Positions 675 through 59,597 of a stretch of DNA of 64,000 nucleotides are shown here, piece by piece (within the stretch, counting starts at the first letter, position 1; every line of letters begins with the position of its first letter). A program made the translations under genes and the position numbers. The notes under the pieces are model-generated. The model did no database searches. It was given only the letters and a program-made list of their open reading frames with translations, and was not told where the DNA came from. Origin of the DNA: a virus (lineage: Duplodnaviria > Caudoviricetes); the IMG/VR virus record IMGVR_UViG_3300036785_000305, positions 2,232 to 66,231 of that record; one strand, 5' to 3'.

Positions 675-1523
675 ATGGTCAATTTTAATCCTGGCGAGTT
701 CCGGGGATTCCACGGGCGCTGGCAGTTGGGTGGAGAGCGCCACGCTCATCTCCGACGCAGGAAAGGAATTCTTGGCGCGGTAGAGCACGCCGCTAGTGCC
801 GGAATTGCCAGGGATAGCCGCAAGGTTGAGCGGGATGCTATCAGGGCACAAAGAGCTTCCAATGTGCAGATCCGGAGGGTTGCCGAGGCTACCGCGAGGT
901 CACGCGGCATATCTACGTCAACGTTCAGGCAAGCCGAGAGGCAAGCGGGCGTAGGCAGAGGCACTGAAAGGGCCGCAGCCGGGGAAGGCAAGAAAGAAGC
1001 GCGAAAGACGACACGGCGTAGGCGTAGCAGACTACGGTCGATCACACGTGGTCGGTATGGGCGCAGGAGGTTTGGTGGGGGACGTTCGCACGTGGCCGGG
1101 CTTCTCAGGGCGGTTGCCCTAGCACGTTTGCTCCGCGGGCGCAAGAAGACGACTGCCGGTACCAGAGTCCATGTCCCAGGCGTACCGACCGCCAAGAAGG
1201 CGCCAAAGCCAAAGAAGGCAAAGGCAAAGGCAAAGCCGAAGGCAAAGCCAAAGGCAAAGCCGCGTAACATTAGGCCACCGAAGGCACCTACTGGTAAGCG
1301 ACCATCGACTGGGACGGGCAAGGGCGTAGCTCAGAAGGTTACGCCGTCATCGCAGGTGATGGCGAACCTTCAGAGGTACGTTAACGCGCCTGGCGGTGCC
1401 CGGGCCGGTGTCGGCACGGCCGGAAGGTCATCGACGGCGAGATCCGGTGTCAGCGCTGGAGCAAGGGCAGGCGCTAGGTCGTCGTCCGGACGTTCGCTGG
1501 TTGTTGGAGGAAGACGGCACTAG
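675..1523 (+). CDS. highly basic Arg/Lys-rich protein with KPKA repeats
   Basis: 282-aa ORF exactly filling the TerS-TerL gap; N-terminal 'FNPGEFRGFHGRW'; low-complexity basic body. Confidence 0.6.
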   Translation: MVNFNPGEFRGFHGRWQLGGERHAHLRRRKGILGAVEHAASAGIARDSRKVERDAIRAQRASNVQIRRVAEATARSRGISTSTFRQAERQAGVGRGTERAAAGEGKKEARKTTRRRRSRLRSITRGRYGRRRFGGGRSHVAGLLRAVALARLLRGRKKTTAGTRVHVPGVPTAKKAPKPKKAKAKAKPKAKPKAKPRNIRPPKAPTGKRPSTGTGKGVAQKVTPSSQVMANLQRYVNAPGGARAGVGTAGRSSTARSGVSAGARAGARSSSGRSLVVGGRRH

Positions 1524-1539
1524 CTGATTGGGGTGACTT

Positions 1540-3195
1540 ATGGACATTGCGCCGCGTGACCGTCTCGTCACCCTGCCGGAGGGGATTCCTAAGCTCACCC
1601 TTGGCTGGGAAGCTATTCACTGGGCGTCGAAGTACCTCAAACAACCAGACGGGCCGGATGCGGGAGACCGCTGGGAGTTTACGGAATCGCAAGTGCGCTT
1701 CCTTCTGTGGTGGTACGCGATACGGGAGGATGGGCGTTGGGTTTTCTACCATGGTGTACGGCGCTACCCAAAAGGCGCTGGGAAGTCCCCATTCGCGGCT
1801 GTACTAGCCATGATCGAGCTGCTAGCGCCCGTTCGCCTGCTCAAATACGATCTCGACGCGCCTGGTGGATGTCTTGGCAAGGTTGTATCTATGCCGCTCG
1901 TTCAGATCGGCGCTTCATCTCATGACCAGGCAAACATCAACACAATGCGCATGGTCCGGGCTCTCCTACCAAAGAATTCGAGAATCCTCAAGGACTATGA
2001 TGTCGAAGCTGGCAAAACCATCTTCCATATCCCAGGCGGTGGCCAGCTCATGGTCATCACGTCTTCTCCCACTACCGAGGAAGGGGCGCTGGTCACGTTT
2101 GCGATTCTGGACCAGACGGAATCGTTTACGCCGTCCAACGGTGGAGTTGAACTTGCCGAAGTTATGGACCGTAACGTCGGCAAGTCTGGGTCGCGGATTA
2201 TCGAGACTTCGAATGCCTGGGAGCCGGGGAAGGAAACCGTTGCTGAGAACACGTTTGATGCTTGGGTGGCGCAGGAGGAAGGGCGCCTCAAAGGCAAAGG
2301 CCGTATCCTATATGATGCGCGCATGGCCCCTCCTGATGTCGATTTCGATGACATCGCCTCGATTCGCAAGGCTGTCGAGTTTGCTTATGGTGATGCTTAT
2401 TGGGTGGATGTTGAGGATATTGTGGAGAACCGCATCCTCTCGCCTCGCACACCGCTCGATGTCTCGAAGCGTTATTACCTCAATTGGCCAGAGTCTCCAG
2501 AAGATGCCTGGACCACGCCACAGAAGTGGGCGCGTCTTGCGGATGTTGAATTCCGTATTGAAGATGGCTCTGATATCGCAATGTTCTTCGATGGCTCGCG
2601 GACTTCGGATGCTACGGCTCTGGTTGGATGTCATATAGAGACCGGGTTTGTATTCTCGCTCGGTATCTGGGAGCCTTTGGGATCTGGGAAGCCGATCCCG
2701 GTCGATGAGGTACACTATGCCGTACGGGCGGCAAAGGAAAAGTGGAACGTATGTGCGTTCTTCGGGGACGTTAATGAGTGGGAAGAGTCCACGAAGATAA
2801 CTTGGCGTGAGGAATTCGAGGATACGCTGGACGTATGGGCGGTGCCGACCGGGCGCGACCCGCAGCCGGTTGCCTGGGACATGCGCTCGCACGTCGCGGA
2901 ATTCACGCATGCGTGCGAAATGGTACTTGGCGAGATTGATTCGCCCGTGCCGTCATTCAAACACGATGGCGACTCGGCGCTAGGCCGTCACGTAGCGAAT
3001 GCCCGGCGTCGGCCGAACCGCTGGGGCGTGTCAATCGGCAAGGAGTCTCCTAAGTCGCCTAAGAAGATTGACGCCTGCGTCTCTATGATCGGGGCGCGGC
3101 ACGCTCGACGTCTCGTGCTAGCTTCAAAGAAGTACAAGGAACGCAAGGATGCTGCCATGAAGCGTGGTGGCCGTCGTGTCTGGAGTTTCAGCTAA
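1540..3195 (+). CDS. terminase large subunit
   Basis: Walker A-like 'PKGAGKS'; nuclease motifs 'FFDGSRTSDATAL' and 'KKIDACVS'. Confidence 0.95.
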   Translation: MDIAPRDRLVTLPEGIPKLTLGWEAIHWASKYLKQPDGPDAGDRWEFTESQVRFLLWWYAIREDGRWVFYHGVRRYPKGAGKSPFAAVLAMIELLAPVRLLKYDLDAPGGCLGKVVSMPLVQIGASSHDQANINTMRMVRALLPKNSRILKDYDVEAGKTIFHIPGGGQLMVITSSPTTEEGALVTFAILDQTESFTPSNGGVELAEVMDRNVGKSGSRIIETSNAWEPGKETVAENTFDAWVAQEEGRLKGKGRILYDARMAPPDVDFDDIASIRKAVEFAYGDAYWVDVEDIVENRILSPRTPLDVSKRYYLNWPESPEDAWTTPQKWARLADVEFRIEDGSDIAMFFDGSRTSDATALVGCHIETGFVFSLGIWEPLGSGKPIPVDEVHYAVRAAKEKWNVCAFFGDVNEWEESTKITWREEFEDTLDVWAVPTGRDPQPVAWDMRSHVAEFTHACEMVLGEIDSPVPSFKHDGDSALGRHVANARRRPNRWGVSIGKESPKSPKKIDACVSMIGARHARRLVLASKKYKERKDAAMKRGGRRVWSFS

Positions 3196-3293
3196 TGAGA
3201 AGGTTCACACTTATAGAGTTGATGCTTATGGTATCGGCCGGATGCTTCATAGTCATCACCATCGCCGTAGGGCATATAGCTGGGTGGTGGTAG
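3195..3293 (+). CDS. 32-aa membrane peptide with type IV pilin-like N-terminus (MRRFTLIELMLMVSAGCFIVITIAVGHIAGWW)
   Basis: ATG overlaps the TerL stop (TAATG); stop lies 1 nt before the portal ATG; below ORF-track cutoff, translated by hand. Confidence 0.65.
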   Translation: MRRFTLIELMLMVSAGCFIVITIAVGHIAGWW

Positions 3294-3294
3294 T

Positions 3295-4893
3295 ATGATT
3301 ATCGGGACAAATGACGTTGTTGAGGTCGTCAATACAGCGCTCGACGCTAGGCAGGCCGAGCAGACCCGTCTGCGTCGTATAGGGCAGTACGTTCGTGGAC
3401 GGCAAGACCCGCCCTATATTCCCAGGGGCGTTAATGCGGAGTACCGCTGGATTGCTAAGAAGGCAAGGCGTAACTTCTTGCCGCTCGTCGTGTCGGTGAT
3501 CTCGGAGAACCTACACGTTGACGGCTACAAGCCAGCTGGCACTACGGCGAATGAGATGGCGTCTCCGCAGAAGCCGCAACCAGAGTGGGATGCGTTCCGG
3601 GCAAATCGAATGGTGTCGCGGCAGCACGGGGTTCATCGCTCGGTTATCAAGTATGGTGCGGCATACACTCTCGTGCTGCCGGGCATGATGGCTTCTGATG
3701 AGGAGCAACTCGCTGATGTTCCGGTGATCCGGCCCGTGTCACCGCGCCGGATGACGGCGTTCTATGCGGACCCGATTGACGATGAGTGGCCGCAGTTTGC
3801 TATCGAGGTAGACATCAAGAATCTGCCCAAGGGCAAGCAGCAAATGATAGTCTACGTTTACGATGAGGAGTACAGGTATATCCTGCAGGGGAATGTTTCG
3901 CCGAATGCTACGACTTCTCAGCTCCAGCTAGCGGACGCATCGAATGCTCTTCTTCAGGGGCAGCCGACGGTAGCTCAGCATAGTATGGGGATCTGTCCGG
4001 TCGTCCGGTTCCTGTATGAAGTTGACCTTGACGGCGAGGATGACTGTGTAGGCGAGATCGAGCCGATCATGCCGATCCAGGACCAGATCAACTTCGATAC
4101 GTTCAATCTAATGATCTCGACGCAGTTTGCCGCGTTCCGGCAGAGGTACGTCTCGGGTATGTCGCCGGTCGATGAGGAGGGTCGTGAGCAAGCTCCATTC
4201 CGCCCAGGCGTGGATCGTGTATGGGCTTCAGATGATCCGACCACGAAGTTTGGCGAATTCGGGGAGACGGCTCTCCAGCCATACTCATTGGTGCGGGAAG
4301 ACGGCATACGGCATATGTCGACAATCTGCCAGGTACCGCCGTATCACCTGCTCGGTCAGGTTGCGAATATGTCAGCTGAGGCGCTCGCTGCGGCACGGGA
4401 TGGTTTCGATCGGAAGGTTGAGGAACTTCAGGCTGCCCTAACCGACCCGTGGCGAAATGTCTTCAGGCTTGTGGACCTGGCATCAGGAAATGACAAAGGA
4501 TGGAACGACCTGTTCGGCACGATCGTATGGAGGGACACGTCGGCGCGGGCATTCACGTCAACGATCCAGGGCCTAGTCGCTATCGCGCAGCAACTTGGCG
4601 TACCGGCGACGGAGCTATGGCAGAGAATCCCAGGGGCCACCGCGGATGACGTTGCTTCCTGGCAGCTCGCATACCAGAGGCAGCAGGCTCAGGCGATAGT
4701 GGAGAATATGATCCAGCAGCAGGCGGCAGCGGCCCAGGCTGCGGGTACTACTGTCCCTCCGGGTTCGGTGCCTCCCGGGCAGGCTCCTGGCGTTGGCGTA
4801 ATCCCGGCCGGTGGGGTTGGTCCTATCTCACCGCCGCCGCCGGCATTGCCTCCTGGTTCGCCTCCTGCTGGGGGAGGTCCGGCTCAGCCATGA
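3295..4893 (+). CDS. portal protein (SPP1 gp6-like)
   Basis: Position after TerL; 532 aa; 'QFAAFRQRY', 'VPPYHLLGQVANMSAEAL'; Pro-rich tail. Confidence 0.9.
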   Translation: MIIGTNDVVEVVNTALDARQAEQTRLRRIGQYVRGRQDPPYIPRGVNAEYRWIAKKARRNFLPLVVSVISENLHVDGYKPAGTTANEMASPQKPQPEWDAFRANRMVSRQHGVHRSVIKYGAAYTLVLPGMMASDEEQLADVPVIRPVSPRRMTAFYADPIDDEWPQFAIEVDIKNLPKGKQQMIVYVYDEEYRYILQGNVSPNATTSQLQLADASNALLQGQPTVAQHSMGICPVVRFLYEVDLDGEDDCVGEIEPIMPIQDQINFDTFNLMISTQFAAFRQRYVSGMSPVDEEGREQAPFRPGVDRVWASDDPTTKFGEFGETALQPYSLVREDGIRHMSTICQVPPYHLLGQVANMSAEALAAARDGFDRKVEELQAALTDPWRNVFRLVDLASGNDKGWNDLFGTIVWRDTSARAFTSTIQGLVAIAQQLGVPATELWQRIPGATADDVASWQLAYQRQQAQAIVENMIQQQAAAAQAAGTTVPPGSVPPGQAPGVGVIPAGGVGPISPPPPALPPGSPPAGGGPAQP

Positions 4894-53373: not shown

Positions 53374-53666
53374 TACGGCGATTCCTCTGCTAGCTTGAAG
53401 ATAGCTCCGGCGCACTGTTCGAGTGTGCCGTCGACGACGTACGTGCCTTCTGCGTATGGCTGCCATGACCAGGACTCGCCAGGCTCGTGGCCGGGTAGGC
53501 TGGTACGCCAATCTCCGCGCCAGCGCACCAGGTCACCACGGTAGTTGTCCTGGCCGTCGTAGATCATCCACCTGGTCGCGCCCTTGCGGCCGCTCGCAGT
53601 GGAGTGGACAGGCACCCAGCCTGGCGGCAGGATCTCGCGGAGGTTGATGCGTTTTCTAGGCATCAC
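53373..53666 (-). CDS. hypothetical protein
   Basis: GAAAAGGGGAT RBS matching the cassette RBS. Confidence 0.55.
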   Translation of the reverse strand: MMPRKRINLREILPPGWVPVHSTASGRKGATRWMIYDGQDNYRGDLVRWRGDWRTSLPGHEPGESWSWQPYAEGTYVVDGTLEQCAGAIFKLAEESP

Positions 53667-53748
53667 ATCCCCTTTTCGATTGGGTAACGATTCGATATAT
53701 ATCGAGCGCGCGCGCGAACGCGCGCGAGCCGATCGCGCGCGCGCCCCG

Positions 53749-54642
53749 TCATGCTATTCTCGGCTTGCGACCCGGAGGATTGCGCCTCTGGATCCCAGTC
53801 TTGTAGTCGGACATTATCCTGACTGTCGCGGAGTCGACCTTCACGTCAACACCGTCGACTTCTACGTAGATCGAGGTCTGCTCGATTCGATACCCGAATG
53901 GCGCCCAGGGAGCGCCGCACTTGAGCTTCTCGCAGACTACGGTCGCCAGGCCACCTTCGTCATCGTCAGGCATAATCCTGATAACGAAGTCGGCCGCATT
54001 GAATAGTCGCGGACCTCGCATTCTCTTGTCGTTATAGTTCGGATGCGCTATCGCGAGCACTACGCAATCTAGTTCCCGCGCCAGCATCTTCATTCCCTGA
54101 ACGACCCGGTTAGCGCTGGTATCGTTCGAGATTGAGAGATTCGTGAAGTCGGACAGCGCGTCCAGGATCACGAGCTTGAGATCTGGTATCTGCTTCAGCT
54201 GAGCGATCGCCACAGTCAGCGCGAGCGTAGGCTCGCCATGACTGCTTAGCGGTAGCTCGAACGGCGCGGTGATAGCGAAGAGGCCATCATCGTGCCATTC
54301 TGGATTCTCTTCGAGCCACTTGCTACGCTCGGGCTCCTGGAGATTCTTCGCTACCTGCTCGCGATCTGCGTAACCTCGTGCTAGCCGGGCTTGCTCGCGG
54401 ATGCCCGCGTCATACTTACCTTCGCCAAAGACGATCGCGACACTTCCCTCACCAGTCTTGCGACCGGCGAAGTCCGCACCATTCACGACGGCTAGGGCTA
54501 GCTCGACATTGACGAGTAGACTCTTGCCTGCGCGGGACGGTCCCCAGACGAAGCCAATACTAGGCCCCTCAGGAATCATTCCCTCCACGAGGTATCGCGG
54601 CGGTGTCGAGTCCATATCGCTGAAGTGTATGATCTCAGCCAT
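53749..54642 (-). CDS. RecA-family AAA ATPase/helicase (AAA_25-like)
   Basis: Walker A 'GPSRAGKS', Walker B 'VILDAL', 'IAHPN', 'RG..LFNAAD'. Confidence 0.8.
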   Translation of the reverse strand: MAEIIHFSDMDSTPPRYLVEGMIPEGPSIGFVWGPSRAGKSLLVNVELALAVVNGADFAGRKTGEGSVAIVFGEGKYDAGIREQARLARGYADREQVAKNLQEPERSKWLEENPEWHDDGLFAITAPFELPLSSHGEPTLALTVAIAQLKQIPDLKLVILDALSDFTNLSISNDTSANRVVQGMKMLARELDCVVLAIAHPNYNDKRMRGPRLFNAADFVIRIMPDDDEGGLATVVCEKLKCGAPWAPFGYRIEQTSIYVEVDGVDVKVDSATVRIMSDYKTGIQRRNPPGRKPRIA

Positions 54643-54728
54643 ACAACTCCAAGTTCATCTTATCCCCTTTTCTAGTGACTGGATAGCCACTCCTCAGGCG
54701 ACGGCCTTGGCCGCCGCCCAAAGGGCAA

Positions 54729-54899
54729 CTACTCGCCTACTTCCGTCTTCTCATCTATCAGGATGTAACCCTCGACGACCCAGAACCGGCCGAAGGCAGA
54801 GGTAATATGGCCGGCGTCCATTGCGTCCCAGATCGCCTCGTGGACTGCTTCATCCTCGGTGATGTACTCGTCTTCGAGATTCAGCTTCGCTACATACAC
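54729..54899 (-). CDS. 56-aa acidic cassette protein
   Basis: Translated by hand; stop abuts hairpin 1; GAGG RBS. Confidence 0.5.
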   Translation of the reverse strand: MYVAKLNLEDEYITEDEAVHEAIWDAMDAGHITSAFGRFWVVEGYILIDEKTEVGE

Positions 54900-54936
54900 T
54901 ACACACTACCTCACTCGCTCCGTCGTCCTTACCTCT

Positions 54937-54966
54937 ATTATACCCTAGCACAAGGCTAGCAGAATA
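54937..54966 (-). promoter_or_regulatory. promoter TATTCT-N18-TATAAT
   Basis: Followed by AGAGGTA. Confidence 0.55.
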
Positions 54967-54970
54967 GAGG

Positions 54971-55207
54971 TCAGAGCGGCTTGTCGAAATCCGCGCCGAG
55001 CCTGTCGACGATATACGCATTCAGCTTTGCGTACACCGTTCGAGTGGCGGGACGGCCGGGCAGGTCTAGAAGTTCCTGCGCGATAGTACGAGCTGAGCGG
55101 CCACGCCGCTTCATGCCTTTGATCTCCAGGCTCAAGGCTGCTCGCAAGGCGAGTACGCTGGCCATGCGAGTCTGCTCTTCGCCCGAGATGCTGAAGCCTT
55201 CGCTCAT
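54971..55207 (-). CDS. cassette protein
   Basis: ATG follows repeat RBS. Confidence 0.6.
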   Translation of the reverse strand: MSEGFSISGEEQTRMASVLALRAALSLEIKGMKRRGRSARTIAQELLDLPGRPATRTVYAKLNAYIVDRLGADFDKPL

Positions 55208-55282
55208 TGTCATCCCCTTTTCTAGTGACCTGATAGCCACTCCGCAGGCGACACCTCGCGGTGCCGCCCACAGGGCAGTTAC

Positions 55283-55684
55283 CTAGACTTCCAATTCCGT
55301 CTTGCCGCAGCTCGGGCAGACATAGGAAGTGTTCATCCCGTCGCCGAGAATGTAGTGGTGACGGATATGGAACGCAGCGCCGCAATCGCACACGAACTCG
55401 ATCTCCAGGATGCTCGACCACTTCGGCGTTGTCCTGGCGACGAGTTCCGCGTTGTACTGGCCAGGGTTGTCGTAACCCGCGGCAAGCACAGCTCGGACGC
55501 GGCAGTCGCGCTCCCACTCCGCGATCATGTCGCCACAGTCGCCGCTCGGGTCGCCCATTGGATCGGGCTCGGCGGTAATGTAGCTCCAGACTGCGGACGC
55601 GGCGCGGCTTAGCTTGCTCGCTGCGTACCGCACGGCAGGCGCTTCCTGCTCCCACGGAATCAGCTCGTAGTCGTCGCTGTCCAT
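55283..55684 (-). CDS. cassette protein with C-terminal zinc ribbon
   Basis: Between hairpins 3 and 2; CDCG and CPSCG. Confidence 0.6.
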   Translation of the reverse strand: MDSDDYELIPWEQEAPAVRYAASKLSRAASAVWSYITAEPDPMGDPSGDCGDMIAEWERDCRVRAVLAAGYDNPGQYNAELVARTTPKWSSILEIEFVCDCGAAFHIRHHYILGDGMNTSYVCPSCGKTELEV

Positions 55685-55763
55685 CGTATCCCCTTTTCTG
55701 TTCGTGGCTGGATAGCCACTCCGCAGGCGACACCTCGCGGTGCCGCCCACAGGGCAGTTACCT

Positions 55764-55979
55764 TCAGTCCTGCTGCTTCGCCCGGTTGCGCAGGAAGTTG
55801 ATAAAGTCTTCCATGCGTTCCTCTCGCCAGTCGCGGAGTTCCCACTCGGCTATTGGCTTCAGCGGGGCGTGGTACGCTTCGATGTACGCTAGGTACGCAA
55901 ATTCCTCGGGCGACAGGTCGCCGTCGAATGCTGGATCGTACTCTGGCTGGTCATCGAACGCCTCAGCCTCAGTGCGCAC
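55764..55979 (-). CDS. cassette protein
   Basis: GTG overlapping upstream gene end; stop abuts hairpin 3. Confidence 0.5.
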   Translation of the reverse strand: MRTEAEAFDDQPEYDPAFDGDLSPEEFAYLAYIEAYHAPLKPIAEWELRDWREERMEDFINFLRNRAKQQD

Positions 55980-56169
55980 CTCGCACCTCCAGACGCTGGC
56001 CCTTGCCCAGGCCGAGGCCCAGACCATAGAGGCGGAAGTGCTCTTCGCACATGAATGCCCACGGCCCGTGAATCGTCGCGCCATCGTACAGCGCAGGCTC
56101 GGGCTCGCGAGTGCCGTGGACAAAGCTACACGATGGTAGCTCGTCGACCACAACCTTCGTGTTCGGCAT
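55969..56169 (-). CDS. cassette protein
   Basis: After repeat RBS; 'YDGATIHGPWAFMCEEHF...GLGLGKGQ'. Confidence 0.6.
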   Translation of the reverse strand: MPNTKVVVDELPSCSFVHGTREPEPALYDGATIHGPWAFMCEEHFRLYGLGLGLGKGQRLEVRGAH

Positions 56170-56254
56170 TGTATCCCCTTTTCTGTTCAGTGACTATTCC
56201 CTCTAGCCACTCTCCGGGCGACAGGCGCGGTTACGCCTGCCTCCCAGAGGGCAG

Positions 56255-56365
56255 TTACAGGAACTCTTCCGGCAGTTCCTCTAGCCAGTAGGCGCGACTG
56301 GAATGCTTAGGCTTATATGCCCAGCCGTTCCACCATCGTGCGAGGCGAATCAGGATCTCGCTCAT
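56255..56365 (-). CDS. 36-aa cassette peptide
   Basis: ATGA coupling; TAA is part of the hairpin 4 base; translated by hand. Confidence 0.45.
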   Translation of the reverse strand: MSEILIRLARWWNGWAYKPKHSSRAYWLEELPEEFL

Positions 56366-56646
56366 CGCGGCGGGAACAGGTCGTTGAAGTTCGTGCCGGG
56401 CGCGTACTTGCTGGCGTCCACGCCACGATAGAACTTGACCAGACGGCCGAGGTTCTCATGATGAGGAGCGACGGTATCGAAGCTGCCGTGCGTAGTGCGG
56501 TGCCACGTCTGAACGTAACCGCCGGGGTAGTCATTCGAATGACTGGCTACCTCGGTGATCTCACAGACCCGAAGGTCATTGTTCCAGAACTTGAGACCAA
56601 CCTCGATCGGGAAAGCGTCGACACTGTAGTGCGTCGCCTTGTCCAT
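56362..56646 (-). CDS. cassette protein
   Basis: ATG after repeat RBS. Confidence 0.6.
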   Translation of the reverse strand: MDKATHYSVDAFPIEVGLKFWNNDLRVCEITEVASHSNDYPGGYVQTWHRTTHGSFDTVAPHHENLGRLVKFYRGVDASKYAPGTNFNDLFPPR

Positions 56647-56739
56647 TGTATCCCCTTTTCTAGTGACTTCGACTTTCGATAGCCACTCCCCGGACGACGG
56701 TGATTTCTCGCCGCCGTCCGGAGGGCAGTTACCTAATGC

Positions 56740-56991
56740 CTAGAGGTCGAGCTCAGCCAGGATATTGCCGTCGCCGACCGGCGACATATCCTCGGCGACA
56801 TCCTGCGTCTCAATCGCGTAGGCGAGGTCGCGCAGGCAGGCTCCGACAGTCTCGCGGTCGATGCCGTGGCCGAGAGCGATTCGCGCAGCCAGCGTCGAGT
56901 TGAACTCAAGCAGTCCGAGCGCGAATGCCTTACGCTCGTGCGCTTCCTCGTAGTCGCCAACAACAGGCTGCTCGATTTCGCCGTTGCTCAT
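56740..56991 (-). CDS. acidic cassette protein
   Basis: ATG after repeat RBS. Confidence 0.6.
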   Translation of the reverse strand: MSNGEIEQPVVGDYEEAHERKAFALGLLEFNSTLAARIALGHGIDRETVGACLRDLAYAIETQDVAEDMSPVGDGNILAELDL

Positions 56992-57068
56992 CGTAATCCC
57001 CTTTTCTAGTGGCGTACGTTCGTAGCCACTCCCCGGGCGACACCGCTTAGGTGCCGCCCAGAGGGCAG

Positions 57069-57254
57069 TTACGCCGTAGCGTACTCGGAGAACATTGCCC
57101 AGTTCTCGGGAAGGGCACTCCACAACTCGCGGAGTTCCTCATCGTCGACGACGAGCGGCCTGCTGAACCGCTCGCCGTCCCGGAGCAGCACGATCCGGGA
57201 TACGCCGAGCAGGTGGGCGTCGCACTTATTCCGGCCGTCGCACGCGCAGGCCAT
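57069..57254 (-). CDS. cassette protein
   Basis: TAATG coupling; stop within hairpin 6 base. Confidence 0.55.
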   Translation of the reverse strand: MACACDGRNKCDAHLLGVSRIVLLRDGERFSRPLVVDDEELRELWSALPENWAMFSEYATA

Positions 57255-57385
57255 TACTTAGCCGCCTGCGCGTAGAACTCGATCTTGCTCTTCAGCGCGG
57301 CGCGGATGCTACCGGGCGCCTCAACGGCGTCGAGCAGCCACATCGCGGTGTTGGCGAGTTCCCGGATGGCTTCGTCCTTATCCAT
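57254..57385 (-). CDS. 43-aa cassette protein
   Basis: ATG after repeat RBS. Confidence 0.55.
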   Translation of the reverse strand: MDKDEAIRELANTAMWLLDAVEAPGSIRAALKSKIEFYAQAAK

Positions 57386-57460
57386 CTCAATCCCCTTTTC
57401 TAGCAGCCGAATGGCCACTCCCCCGGCGACGGCCGTAGCCGCCGCCCGGAGGGCAGTCAC

Positions 57461-57712
57461 TTAGTCGCAGGTACAGCCGACCAGCTTCGCCGGCAGGTGA
57501 TTCGGAAACTGCCTCGTAATCGGGCAGACCGGCCGGAGGTCCCTAGCCGGGCACGGGCATTCCTCGGTACGCCAGGTGACGTAGAAGATGCTCCGCGCCC
57601 CGATGTAGCTGATGTTCTTAGTGCTCCATCGGAGGTCAGGATGGTTAACGCACGTCAGCTCGATGTGCTCGCCGTACTCGGCGAAGGCTACGATGCGACC
57701 GTCGTTGTCCAT
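57461..57712 (-). CDS. Cys-rich cassette protein
   Basis: Exactly fills the space between hairpins 8 and 7. Confidence 0.6.
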   Translation of the reverse strand: MDNDGRIVAFAEYGEHIELTCVNHPDLRWSTKNISYIGARSIFYVTWRTEECPCPARDLRPVCPITRQFPNHLPAKLVGCTCD

Positions 57713-57793
57713 TTATATCCCCTTTTCTATTCAGCAGCCTGGATGGCCACTCCCCGGGCGACGGGGAAACCCCGCCGCCCGGAGGGCAGTCAC

Positions 57794-57898
57794 CTAGCCG
57801 TCGATCTCACCCATATCGATCAGCATCGCGCGTGCCTCTTTAGCGTTCTCCGCGAGGCCACTTTCGACGAGTGCCTGGATCTTAGCCTTAGTGCTCAT
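57794..57898 (-). CDS. 34-aa cassette peptide (MSTKAKIQALVESGLAENAKEARAMLIDMGEIDG)
   Basis: Exactly fills the space between hairpins 9 and 8; translated by hand. Confidence 0.6.
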   Translation of the reverse strand: MSTKAKIQALVESGLAENAKEARAMLIDMGEIDG

Positions 57899-57978
57899 CG
57901 TTATCCCCTTTTCTATTCAGCAGCTACGATAGCCACTCCTCGGGCGACGGCCGAAGCCGCCGCCCAAAGGGCAGTTAC

Positions 57979-58371
57979 CTACGCCTTCCTACGGCCCAGT
58001 GCCTTACCGTCCGCGTCGCGGTTCGCCGGTGACTTCTGGAAGTGCCCGTACGCCTTAATCGCGATATAGACAAGCCTCTCGTCCATCGCGACGGGAAGGG
58101 CGTACAGCTCCGGGAACTCGGCACGCAGCCAGTCGCAGTAGCGCTTCGCCACGGGCGAGAGTTCCTTATCGGCGTAGCCCTTAAGGCCAGACGATACGGT
58201 CGCCTTCTTAGCAGACTCCGCAGCGGACTTCGCCTCCGCCAGTTCCGCCTCCGCAGCCGCGATCCGTGCGTCGCGCTCGGCGAGCAGGGCCTTAAGCTCA
58301 GCCAGCTCGGCAGCAGCGGACTTACGGGCGGCACGGGCGACGGTCGCCGGAGTAGCAGTCTCGTTAGCCAT
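57979..58371 (-). CDS. coiled-coil + YGHFQ-family protein, copy 3; first gene of cassette operon
   Basis: GAAAAGGGG RBS; 'YADKELSP...YCDWL..EF...DERLVYIAIKAYGHFQKS'. Confidence 0.7.
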   Translation of the reverse strand: MANETATPATVARAARKSAAAELAELKALLAERDARIAAAEAELAEAKSAAESAKKATVSSGLKGYADKELSPVAKRYCDWLRAEFPELYALPVAMDERLVYIAIKAYGHFQKSPANRDADGKALGRRKA

Positions 58372-58762
58372 TTTCTTCCCCTTTTCGAGCATTTTCGACT
58401 ACCGGGATCGGTAGCCGGCGCGCACGTTCGCGAGCAGTTTTCGACGGCTTCGAAAAGCACGCGAACGCGACGCCGGGTAGATATCCCGTACGGAGCACCC
58501 ATCGGTAAAGAGAGTGCTCCCTAGGAAAAGGGGGGATATTCGCTATGTAGGTTTCAAGAATCAGTCGGGACGCTCCGGGCCGAATCGCTAAGGGCACTAC
58601 TAATACCCTATCGTCGCTATCCTACGGAGCGGGACGGGAGCACCTCCCGCCGAGCACCTTCGCCGGTCCCCCGCGCGCGACGCGCGCGCGGCCCGGCCCA
58701 CCCTCCTATCTAACGGTCTAACCTTATAGCTAAAGCTTATCGTACTATCCGGCCCTAGCATA

Positions 58763-59225
58763 TAGCTATCTAGGACTATCTTAGGACTAGATAGGGACTA
58801 GATTTTCGTAGCCCAAAATAACTAGTCGCGCGCCTATCGGTCGTAGTCCTTTAGGACTAGATTTTCGACGCACACGTAGCCCGAAAGGACTAGACGCGGG
58901 TGGGCGCGCGTAGCCCGAAAGGACTAGTCCCGCGACGCACACACCGCCCGAATTAACTACTCGCGGCGGGCGCGACGTAGTTCGAAGTAACTAGTCCGCA
59001 TAGCCCGAATTAACTAGTTCGCGCCCATCGGTGGGGGCTCGAAAGGACTATCCGTGGGTCCATCGGTCGTAGTTATTCCGGAGGGTATCGCCATAGTTAT
59101 AGGGAGGGGGTCGACTACACTCGCGCGTAGTTCGAAAGGACTAGGCCACGCCCATCGGTGGGTAGCCCGAAAGGACTATAGGCGACCATCGGTGACTGTA
59201 GTCGACCCCTCCCAGATAACTAGTC
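58763..59225. repeat. phased array of 17-bp quasi-palindromes (TAGYYCGAAWKRACTAG)
   Basis: Units at 58809, 58844, 58877, 58911, 58944, 58978, 59001, 59035, 59128, 59163; non-coding. Confidence 0.8.
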
Positions 59226-59311
59226 CGGGACCGGCGTAGCTGGGGCTCATAGAAATCGCAACCAATTTTTAGCAGCGTCTAAAATGGGGGAATTCCTGTT
59301 GCGTAGACGTG

Positions 59312-59345
59312 AAAAAGCCCGGCCCCCATTGCTGAGGACCGGGCT
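59312..59345 (-). terminator. rho-independent terminator
   Basis: AGCCCGGTCCTCA-GCAA-TGGGGGCCGGGCT-TTTT on - strand, after the 59385-60979 genes. Confidence 0.75.
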
Positions 59346-59384
59346 CTGGCTAGACCCACCCGCGTGGGCGGCTACTGGGGATAG

Positions 59385-59597
59385 TTAACACGCGGGCGGG
59401 GGCTTTTGAGAGTTTTTGATTTCATCCGGATCCAGGCTGAACAGGATCTTCAGGTCGAATGCTGCGTGCTGGGCCTCTTCGGCTGCTGCGTGTGCCTTCG
59501 CCCGGTTGCCGGAGTATGCCGCGGCCAGGCATCTACGCACGGCAACCTGGACTTTGGATGCGGCTGCGGTGAGCTCATCACGAGTCGGCATTGACAT
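59385..59597 (-). CDS. hypothetical protein
   Basis: TGATG coupling. Confidence 0.5.
   Translation of the reverse strand: MSMPTRDELTAAASKVQVAVRRCLAAAYSGNRAKAHAAAEEAQHAAFDLKILFSLDPDEIKNSQKPPPAC

Follow-up and report, generated by a model that had tools for sequence, protein, structure and literature searches.

Predicted two-state RNA modules repeated between small genes of a soil phage operon share their junctions with hammerhead ribozymes of relatives

The window analyzed here, a stretch of 64,000 nucleotides, comprises bases 2232-66231 of the 66,231-bp IMG/VR virus record IMGVR_UViG_3300036785_000305 (CheckV rating, 100% complete). Its structural genes occupy the + strand, and a long leftward operon occupies the - strand. 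Within this operon, cassettes of one or two small open reading frames (ORFs) of 34-133 aa are separated by nine copies of a repeated unit, flanked by a conserved first gene and by the gene for an AAA_25 ATPase (Table 1). An earlier sequence-only reading of the window had described these copies as covarying RNA hairpins, each coupled to the same ribosome-binding site (RBS); all nine copies, and the ORF sizes it gave, are found on reading the - strand. Our comparative analysis identifies the element as a real RNA-level two-state intercistronic module. New here are a second hairpin that competes with the one originally described, and the finding that relatives of the phage have hammerhead ribozymes at these junctions, preceding orthologous genes.

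Each unit (77-92 nt) has the same order of parts: a stop codon, a first hairpin of 50-56 nt (HP1), a second hairpin (HP2), the block AGAAAAGGGGAT (labeled SAS in Table 1) and an ATG. The extended Shine-Dalgarno block AGAAAAGGGGA, hereafter the purine block, lies 3-5 nt 5' of the ATG, and the stop codon falls within a few bases of the HP1 5' edge, or inside HP1, in 9/9 window units. Exact copies of AGAAAAGGGGAT number nine, with one further copy carrying a single mismatch at 53667-53678 (0.10 expected by chance); every copy is on the - strand, within 53667-57914. The composite pattern GGAGTGGCYA-N3-30-AGAAAAGGGGAT matches 8/9 units at a chance expectation of 0.00, missing unit c6, which reads AGAGTGG, and ACTGCCCTNNGGGCGGC with up to three mismatches gives 14 matches, 9 of them within the array (2.87 expected).

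In every window copy HP1 folds into a hairpin of 22-23 bp, and in 9/9 copies the sense strand (-30.3 to -39.1 kcal/mol) is more stable than the antisense strand (-17.6 to -33.0 kcal/mol). RNAalifold places 22 pairs in the nine copies, 7 of them with changes on both sides. The compensatory changes cited in the sequence-only reading are present, namely GTGAC/GCCAT at 57793 and 57460, GGACG/CGTCC at 56732 and U-A versus G-C at one stem position, as are the loops TTCG, TACG and GCGA that it listed. Its count of nine hairpins holds for the units, but only eight are distinct, since those at 55761 and 55282 have the same sequence. A covariance model trained on the nine copies of the window (R1; unit threshold, E <= 3e-5) detects 29 units, 9 in the window, 11 in the related contig L014, 7 in L075 and 2 in L073, with antisense matches of at most 21 bits. 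Across the alignment of these 29 units, 94.0% of 638 HP1 cells are paired, versus 78.6% in shuffles (0/500 reach the observed value) and 36-54% in slid controls; both-sided changes occur in 16/22 pairs, and double-change cells number 90 versus 26 in shuffles; by these counts HP1 covaries strongly. Canonical cells total 600/638 in the sense strand (141 of them G.U) versus 470/638 in the antisense strand. This asymmetry places the structure on the transcribed-sense strand, and energies, covariation and G.U bias together give indirect support to the earlier supposition that the element acts as RNA in that strand. The basal HP1 helix covaries at one pair (C-G in 18 units, U-A in 10, U.G in 1). A stem mismatch described earlier as conserved is A.C in 21/29 units but is not invariant, being G-C in the other 8/29. 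Several nucleotides, a G.U wobble among them, are the same in 29/29 units, as is the Shine-Dalgarno block.

The long stem is one of two competing folds, the other of which the sequence-only reading had missed. The HP1 3' basal strand, AGUGGCYA, is also complementary to the strand abutting the purine block (UAGUCACU, GGCUGCU, GCCACU or similar), and the hairpin so formed is HP2, which folds in 29/29 units at -7.1 to -15.5 kcal/mol. In a register-anchored count, 201/232 HP2 cells are canonical, versus 184.8 +/- 3.0 with the partner strands shuffled (0/5000 reach it). One position covaries strongly (U-A in 13 units, C-G in 11, U.G in 3), and two units carry a matched inserted pair, an extra T with an extra A. 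On a plain MAFFT alignment, in which several rows are misregistered, the signal is weaker (80.6% vs 78.0% paired, 1/500), with a covariation score of 0.221 versus 0.167 in shuffles (0/500). HP2 and the basal HP1 helix share nucleotides and are mutually exclusive, and both covary. Ensemble prediction favors HP2 over the basal HP1 helix in 24/29 units (mean probabilities, 0.77 vs 0.18), and the two unit states lie 0-7 kcal/mol apart. The C.A and A.C 'mismatches' and the invariant G.U pairs of the long stem are nucleotides that are Watson-Crick paired in HP2. The folding models thus describe the element as an upper hairpin of ~14 bp plus a strand with two possible pairings, and not as a simple 23-bp hairpin. 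A second state that hides the Shine-Dalgarno sequence was considered and rejected: its predicted opening cost averages 1.68 kcal/mol in intact units and 1.45 and 1.43 kcal/mol with the 5' arm masked or removed, and because this cost, ~1.5 kcal/mol with or without the 5' arm, is small and nearly constant, no sequestration switch is predicted.

The contigs that share units with the window, L014 (= L010, L081; 22,435 bp), L075 (5,783 bp) and L073 (1,006 bp), were found by pattern scans and protein-guided searches. The L014 ATPase is 85% identical to that of the window in protein and 80.5% in DNA, and the four closest ATPase homologs (P0001-P0004) show 88-92% identity. An AAA_25 ATPase profile reached further relatives at 42-55% identity, in which R1 finds no match. 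In L103, whose ATPase is 53% identical, the same operon contains nine Rfam Hammerhead_II matches (L103:1017-5627, +); the gathering score is reached by four of the nine, the other five scoring lower (E 0.008-0.053). They stand one per gene junction, eight before the ATPase gene and one just after it, each between a stop codon and a Shine-Dalgarno sequence. The window genes c6_66, c7_133, c8_78 and post96 have L103 homologs that are 57-75% identical, each directly after a hammerhead, and a hammerhead also occupies the L103 junction orthologous to the window's post-ATPase junction (53660..53758). Each L103 hammerhead additionally shows a covarying pseudoknot (loop I with 3' tail). A model built from these nine hammerheads (R2) matches all nine in L103, two in L075 (58.3 and 53.2 bits), one in L105 and a degenerate one in L104; in the window, L014 and L073 it finds no hammerhead at E <= 1. 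One of the two L075 hammerheads has a canonical core and the other an inserted U; the Rfam search does not report either at E <= 1.

L075 holds both types of element in one array (718-4761, -), in which seven HP1-HP2 units alternate with two hammerheads (2145-2207 and 3597-3659). Units of both types abut the same GAAAAGGGGAA block, and the hammerheads abut GAAAAGGGGA. A gene pair that is 73% identical is preceded by an HP1-HP2 unit in L014 and by a hammerhead in L075, with the similarity starting at the purine block. The layout is that of the Type II hammerhead arrays described by Perreault et al. 2011 (PMC3088659; RF02276), with stop codon, element, tail helix, Shine-Dalgarno sequence and ATG in succession. 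That account interprets clustered hammerheads flanking single genes in prophages as sites at which long phage transcripts are cleaved to give single-gene mRNAs (PMC3088659). The likeness extends to the setting, the same operon with orthologous genes following the element in L103 and L075, and to the two adjacent hairpins, which a cut would separate. The window units differ in having neither the CUGANGA / GAAA / UH core nor a three-way junction. No window sequence fits a relaxed core pattern, a stricter one has 8 matches in L103 and 2 in L075, and the Rfam hammerhead models (gathering threshold, 37 bits) match nothing at E <= 1 in window 53500-59500. In four window units HP2 is followed by CUGAAUAG, CUGAACAG or ACGAACAG, and GUAAC in the 5' arm is similar to GAAAC. 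A degenerate type II/III hammerhead was nevertheless discarded as a candidate: mapping by eye gave no consistent core or junction, and covariance models find nothing.

The units also mark where relatives differ in gene content. The first gene and the ATPase are common to the window and L014, as is a portion of the first cassette, but the intervening 3.2-3.7 kb show no detectable likeness. The similarity breaks off just past unit c1 and is found again from within unit c9. L014, L075 and L073 share cassettes, but in different order or with several whole cassettes missing. Three pieces of the window (55548-56257, 56644-56950 and 57742-58423) have collinear matches in a 2,564-nt contig of a different soil study; the stretches between them are unlike, and 3/4 of the breakpoints fall at unit edges. 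Further hairpin joints were left unused, as their short sides of 22-50 letters may reflect a repeat aligning to its best-matching copy. By these sequence comparisons the units are joints of a hyperplastic region, as are the PeSLs of T4-type phages (PMC2839356, as far as the element is described there). Cassette order and content differ among these relatives, and the variation fits the earlier suggestion that the repeats provide homology for cassette shuffling. No recombinase is encoded, which makes ordinary homologous recombination the likely mechanism of exchange at the units; we infer that these joints are a side effect of having repeated modules. Unit identity is 0.83 within the window versus 0.715 between genomes. 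The base that follows GAAAAGGGGA is T in the nine window units and the post-ATPase unit, TT in 9/11 units of L014 and A in every unit of L075 and L073, a genome-specific pattern suggesting that the units of each genome evolve in concert.

We compared the units with elements of similar layout. The early-gene RNase III signals of phage T7 are irregular hairpins of about two turns in the gaps of one polycistronic transcript, with the RBS of the next gene following. The units resemble them as intercistronic hairpins with a mismatch-interrupted stem (22 pairs with C.A and A.C mismatches in 9/9 window units) placed before the RBS of the next gene, and in the 3' hairpin that we propose for the upstream message. 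They differ in having no sequence relation to the T7 signals, in a stop codon built into the stem and in a stem base whose 8-9 pairs compete with HP2, a second hairpin predicted to be stabler. In integrons, an imperfect hairpin with conserved mismatched bases and strand-specific folding, attC, follows each cassette. All three traits recur in the units, which are however fused to an RBS and read in the mRNA sense. No IntI-type tyrosine recombinase with an attI site lies by the array: PF00589 was found nowhere in the 66,231-bp record, whereas 14/14 control genomes matched. The integron comparison made in the sequence-only reading therefore holds only for layout.

Similar in layout are the SAS and ESAS of Cluster K mycobacteriophages, where the SAS is a conserved block that includes the RBS and precedes the ATG by 3-9 bp in non-structural genes (Pope et al. 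2011, PMC3203893; PMC11373665; PMC12699233). The ESAS, often found before the SAS, consists of imperfectly matching inverted arms around a variable spacer; it carries a SigA-like promoter and is read as a DNA site in the description given there (PMC3203893). Its authors report no support for base-pairing in the ESAS. Inverted repeat, spacer and RBS block before the ATG are alike in the two systems, but the sequences differ: the window block AGAAAAGGGGAT does not match the Cluster K SAS (GGGATAGGAGCCC, 13 bp, <=2 mismatches), only its position being common, and the units are not 15-17 bp imperfect inverted repeats with SigA-like -35/-10 sequences, sharing no promoter-like hexamers. Unlike the ESAS, they show covariation and a one-strand G.U bias and have no promoter. 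The Cluster K phage Anaya carries 15 SAS copies of its own kind, and its ESAS has TTGACA and no consistent strand bias; R1 gives 0 matches in the Anaya right arm. The PeSL of T4-type phages joins a strong sigma-70 early promoter to a stem-loop that terminates transcription, between small non-essential genes (Arbiol et al. 2010, PMC2839356, in its description of the element). Like PeSLs, the units are short, repeated in a hyperplastic region and the sites at which relatives differ, with indels and replacements bounded by units; they differ in having no promoter and no U-tract terminator.

Rfam 15 has no match in the window at the gathering score; at E <= 1 the only hit is a sub-threshold tpke11 on both strands of one GC hairpin, and known ribozyme families at E <= 1 do not match the units. 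Pattern scans of viral contigs returned one related contig plus chance singles; L009, L011 and L109 were checked by R1 and none is a unit (L109, 0 matches; L009, one weak match of 18.6 bits, E 0.05). Among 12 stretches from a metagenome scan, only L073, L075 and L081 (the L014 contig) are real, and a scan of genome contigs for host or prophage copies gave 16 single matches, none a unit by R1. Our literature searches on actinophages returned no description of such an element. On sequence grounds, then, the motif is not a member of the SAS/ESAS, PeSL, attC, hammerhead or Rfam families. The terminase of the source phage is 43-50% identical to terminases of Corynebacterium, Mycobacterium and other actinophages, only a distant similarity; none of 50,697 isolated phages matches the array region in DNA, and protein search gives no match for the flanking ATPase among isolated phages. 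The phage therefore looks like an actinophage of an uncultivated lineage. It was found in five sequencing runs, all soil DNA metagenomes.

On balance, we favor the view that the units are intercistronic RNA processing and stability modules ('RNA punctuation') in the early-operon sense transcript, because hammerheads hold the same junctions and because the units combine two adjacent hairpins with a strong RBS. When a hammerhead cuts, the upstream RNA is left with a hairpin at its 3' end and the downstream RNA with one at its 5' end. The HP1-HP2 unit provides such a pair side by side, followed by a strong RBS. In the scheme that we propose, a long early transcript would be cut at each module, most likely, by analogy with T7, by a host enzyme of the RNase III type that is specific for double-stranded RNA and has full-length HP1 as its substrate. 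After the cut, the upper hairpin would be kept at the 3' end of the upstream message, and the freed strand would re-pair as HP2 at the extreme 5' end of the downstream message, beside the strong RBS. The two pairings would thus be a substrate fold and a product fold, and each small gene would be expressed from a separate mRNA that is protected and well translated. Stabilization of mRNA by strong Shine-Dalgarno sequences and by stem-loops at the 5' terminus is described in PMC7509114. The mRNA-processing role suggested in the sequence-only reading is supported in part, and indirectly, by the position of hammerheads at orthologous junctions.

Several points weigh against this processing scheme. 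We infer cleavage at the units from their position only; RNase III is not encoded by the phage. Since the predicted equilibrium favors HP2 over the 22-23 bp stem, the classical RNase III substrate would be a minority or transient form. Support for HP2 comes mainly from the strongly covarying pair and the two rows with matched insertions, and is modest on the unfitted alignment, while the HP1 cell counts come from an alignment fitted to R1. The 29 units are related copies from four contigs of one lineage, homogenized within the window and therefore not independent, and the motif is confined to that one phage lineage. Some junctions in other relatives have plain, unrelated GC hairpins or nothing recognizable, so the module is not indispensable.

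Among the alternatives, a translational device that works without cleavage has a small but appreciable chance of being right. Here a ribosome terminating at the stop codon in the HP1 base would free the shared strand for HP2, coupling or insulating neighboring cistrons or providing a standby site beside the Shine-Dalgarno sequence. The stop codon at or inside the HP1 5' edge in 9/9 units, the covariation of both exclusive helices, the 0-7 kcal/mol between states and the Shine-Dalgarno block invariant in 29/29 units are all as such a device would have them. However, the Shine-Dalgarno opening cost is small and hardly altered by masking or removing the 5' arm, hammerhead units show the same stop-codon juxtaposition, which is thus not specific to the fold, and self-cleaving ribozymes at orthologous junctions are left unexplained. 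Those ribozymes are the starting point for an idea that we consider unlikely: a new class of small self-cleaving (or cut-on-refolding) RNA that would have replaced type II hammerheads at these junctions in this lineage, the competing helices being its pre- and post-cleavage folds. The units alternate with hammerheads in one array and replace them before orthologous genes, several nucleotides including a G.U wobble are invariant in 29/29 units, and no known ribozyme family matches at E <= 1. The pistol, hatchet and twister-sister classes were themselves found through closeness to hammerheads and phage genes, as outlined in PMC4604425. Yet the conserved nucleotides lie nearly all within ordinary helices, the fold is a near-regular stem or hairpin pair interrupted by 1x1 mismatches only, with no conserved multi-helix junction, pseudoknot or loop such as makes up the core of known small ribozymes, and the loops vary in sequence and length; confinement to one lineage and plain hairpins at such junctions in other relatives also speak against a ribozyme.

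The exchange of cassettes raises the still less likely prospect that the units are repeated palindromic DNA of little effect on expression, kept or spread by recombination or gene conversion as a PeSL- or attC-like joint or a selfish repeat. Such a repeat would account for the like flanks of the window and L014 with almost none of the 3.2-3.7 kb between in common, for cassettes reordered or missing among L014, L075 and L073, for the 3/4 breakpoints of the 2,564-nt contig at unit edges and for homogenized window units, two with identical hairpins. But covariation and the 141 one-strand G.U cells indicate selection on a folded single strand and not on duplex homology, the fixed stop-to-start register and replacement by hammerheads indicate a role in expression, and the genome has no tyrosine recombinase; exchange at the units is compatible with processing, maybe as a by-product. 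Factor-dependent or U-tract-independent terminators or attenuators that time early expression are very unlikely, even though the hairpins are stable (-30 to -39 kcal/mol), GC-rich and directly after ORFs, and two alternative helices resemble attenuator logic. No U tract follows any of the nine units, as the sequence-only reading observed in setting intrinsic terminators aside, whereas a canonical intrinsic terminator, a GC hairpin followed by TTTTT at window 59311-59346 (-), ends the preceding transcription unit upstream of the array operon, so that terminators with ordinary U tracts are read in the host. A series of nine terminators ahead of a replication ATPase would starve the downstream genes, the competing helix forms after the hairpin and so cannot be an antiterminator, and hammerheads at the orthologous junctions do not terminate transcription. 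The layout shared with the ESAS and SAS of Cluster K mycobacteriophages (PMC3203893, as described there) suggests DNA sites for a dimeric regulator or ESAS-like promoter-operator units, which we regard as exceedingly unlikely: the arms covary rather than keep a half-site sequence, the spacers range widely, the strands differ greatly in pairing, and no sigma-70-like hexamers are common to the units. Nor does the Anaya ESAS, with its TTGACA, its inconsistent strand bias and 0 R1 matches, resemble them. Promoter-like sites number 2 versus 2.2 expected, none common to the units, and no unit contains a terminator-like site; with no excess of either kind, a reading of the units as promoters or U-tract terminators was rejected.

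Phage early operons rich in small orphan genes are increasingly seen as RNA-'punctuated'. To our knowledge, the punctuation marks described until now are hammerhead ribozymes and, in T7, RNase III sites. A non-hammerhead two-state module that is interchangeable with true hammerheads before the same genes is a natural experiment on what punctuation needs. At base-pair resolution, the punctuation marks are also the joints at which relatives exchange early genes. The module is a compact candidate part for cistron insulation in high-GC bacteria, and a short candidate for either a novel class of RNase substrate or a self-cleaving RNA of a new kind.

Table 1. Coordinates of the array, its units and the neighboring genes in the window. 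Scores of c1-c9 are from R1, a model built from these same nine copies.
Feature	Position	Strand	Details
Array of nine HP1-HP2-SAS units between small early-operon ORFs	54656..57978	-	
Unit c1	57896..57978	-	HP1 57978-57929; HP2 57937-57919; SAS 57914-57903; ATG 57898-57896; 101.7 bits
Unit c2	57710..57793	-	HP1 57793-57743; HP2 57751-57733; SAS 57728-57717; ATG 57712-57710; 98.2 bits
Unit c3	57383..57460	-	HP1 57460-57411; HP2 57419-57402; SAS 57401-57390; ATG 57385-57383; 89.9 bits
Unit c4	56989..57072	-	HP1 57072-57022; HP2 57030-57008; SAS 57007-56996; ATG 56991-56989; 91.5 bits
Unit c5	56644..56732	-	HP1 56732-56679; HP2 56687-56662; SAS 56661-56650; ATG 56646-56644; 82.0 bits
Unit c6	56167..56258	-	HP1 56258-56203; HP2 56211-56189; SAS 56184-56173; ATG 56169-56167; 69.8 bits
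Unit c7	55682..55761	-	HP1 55761-55712; HP2 55720-55704; SAS 55699-55688; ATG 55684-55682; 86.0 bits
Unit c8	55205..55282	-	HP1 55282-55233 (same sequence as c7); HP2 55241-55224; SAS 55223-55212; ATG 55207-55205; 92.1 bits
Unit c9	54656..54732	-	HP1 54732-54683; HP2 54691-54674; SAS 54673-54662; ATG 54658-54656; 82.2 bits
SAS-like GAAAAGGGGA and ATG of the operon's first gene	58369..58386	-	Without HP1; small hairpin just upstream
First gene, 130 aa	57979..58371	-	Conserved at the head of relatives' arrays; no Pfam or PHROG match
Cassette ORF, 34 aa	57794..57898	-	
Cassette ORF, 83 aa	57461..57712	-	
Cassette, two overlapping ORFs	57069..57385	-	43 aa (57254-57385); 61 aa (57069-57254)
Cassette ORF, 83 aa	56740..56991	-	
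Cassette, two ORFs	56255..56646	-	94 aa (56362-56646); 36 aa (56255-56365)
Cassette, two ORFs	55764..56169	-	66 aa (55969-56169, phrog_23287); 71 aa (55764-55979)
Cassette ORF, 133 aa	55283..55684	-	CxxC pairs at C-terminus
Cassette	54729..55207	-	78-aa ORF (54971-55207, phrog_19182); TATAAT (54942-54937); 56-aa ORF (54729-54899)
Conserved flank, AAA_25 ATPase, 297 aa	53749..54642	-	
Junction after the ATPase gene	53660..53758	-	GC-rich hairpin; small palindrome TCGATATATATCGA; SAS variant CGAAAAGGGGAT (53678-53667)

The proteins encoded in the cassettes are orphans, with Pfam matches for 0/9 and matches to PHROG families of unknown function for 2/9, and the anti-host or anti-defense role earlier ascribed to them is therefore unsupported. 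The product of the first gene was considered as a factor specific to the array and dropped, since it gave no Pfam, PHROG or Atlas lead and its family also occurs in relatives without HP1-HP2 units. The post-ATPase junction has a hairpin different from HP1 and scores only 21.8 bits with R1 (E 0.0089).

Some smaller features of the operon deserve mention. The ATG of unit c9 opens a 7-codon mini-ORF, MNLELYG (window 54635-54658, -), whose stop overlaps the ATPase ATG (ATGGCTGA); the mini-ORF at the ATPase start has 7 codons in L075 and 16 in L014. The promoter-like TATAAT listed in Table 1 lies within an 8-bp inverted repeat, CCTCTATT ... AATAGAGG (window 54931-54970, -), between the cassette after c8 and the 56-aa ORF, and a similar GTATAATAGAGGTAGG motif occurs twice in L075; judging from its sequence, the site may be an internal promoter of the array. 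In the leader of the first gene, CCCCCCTTTTCC (window 58524-58535, -) is perfectly complementary to the purine block GGAAAAGGGG ~140 nt downstream, with hairpins between, and L014 has TTCCCCT at the same place. Upstream of the operon lies a large, repeat-rich non-coding region (window 58750-59250, -) that includes CACCGATGGGCG. This 10-12-mer recurs in 4-8 copies upstream of the operon in six relatives (L102-L107), and in L103 it is also part of the ribosome-binding region after each hammerhead.

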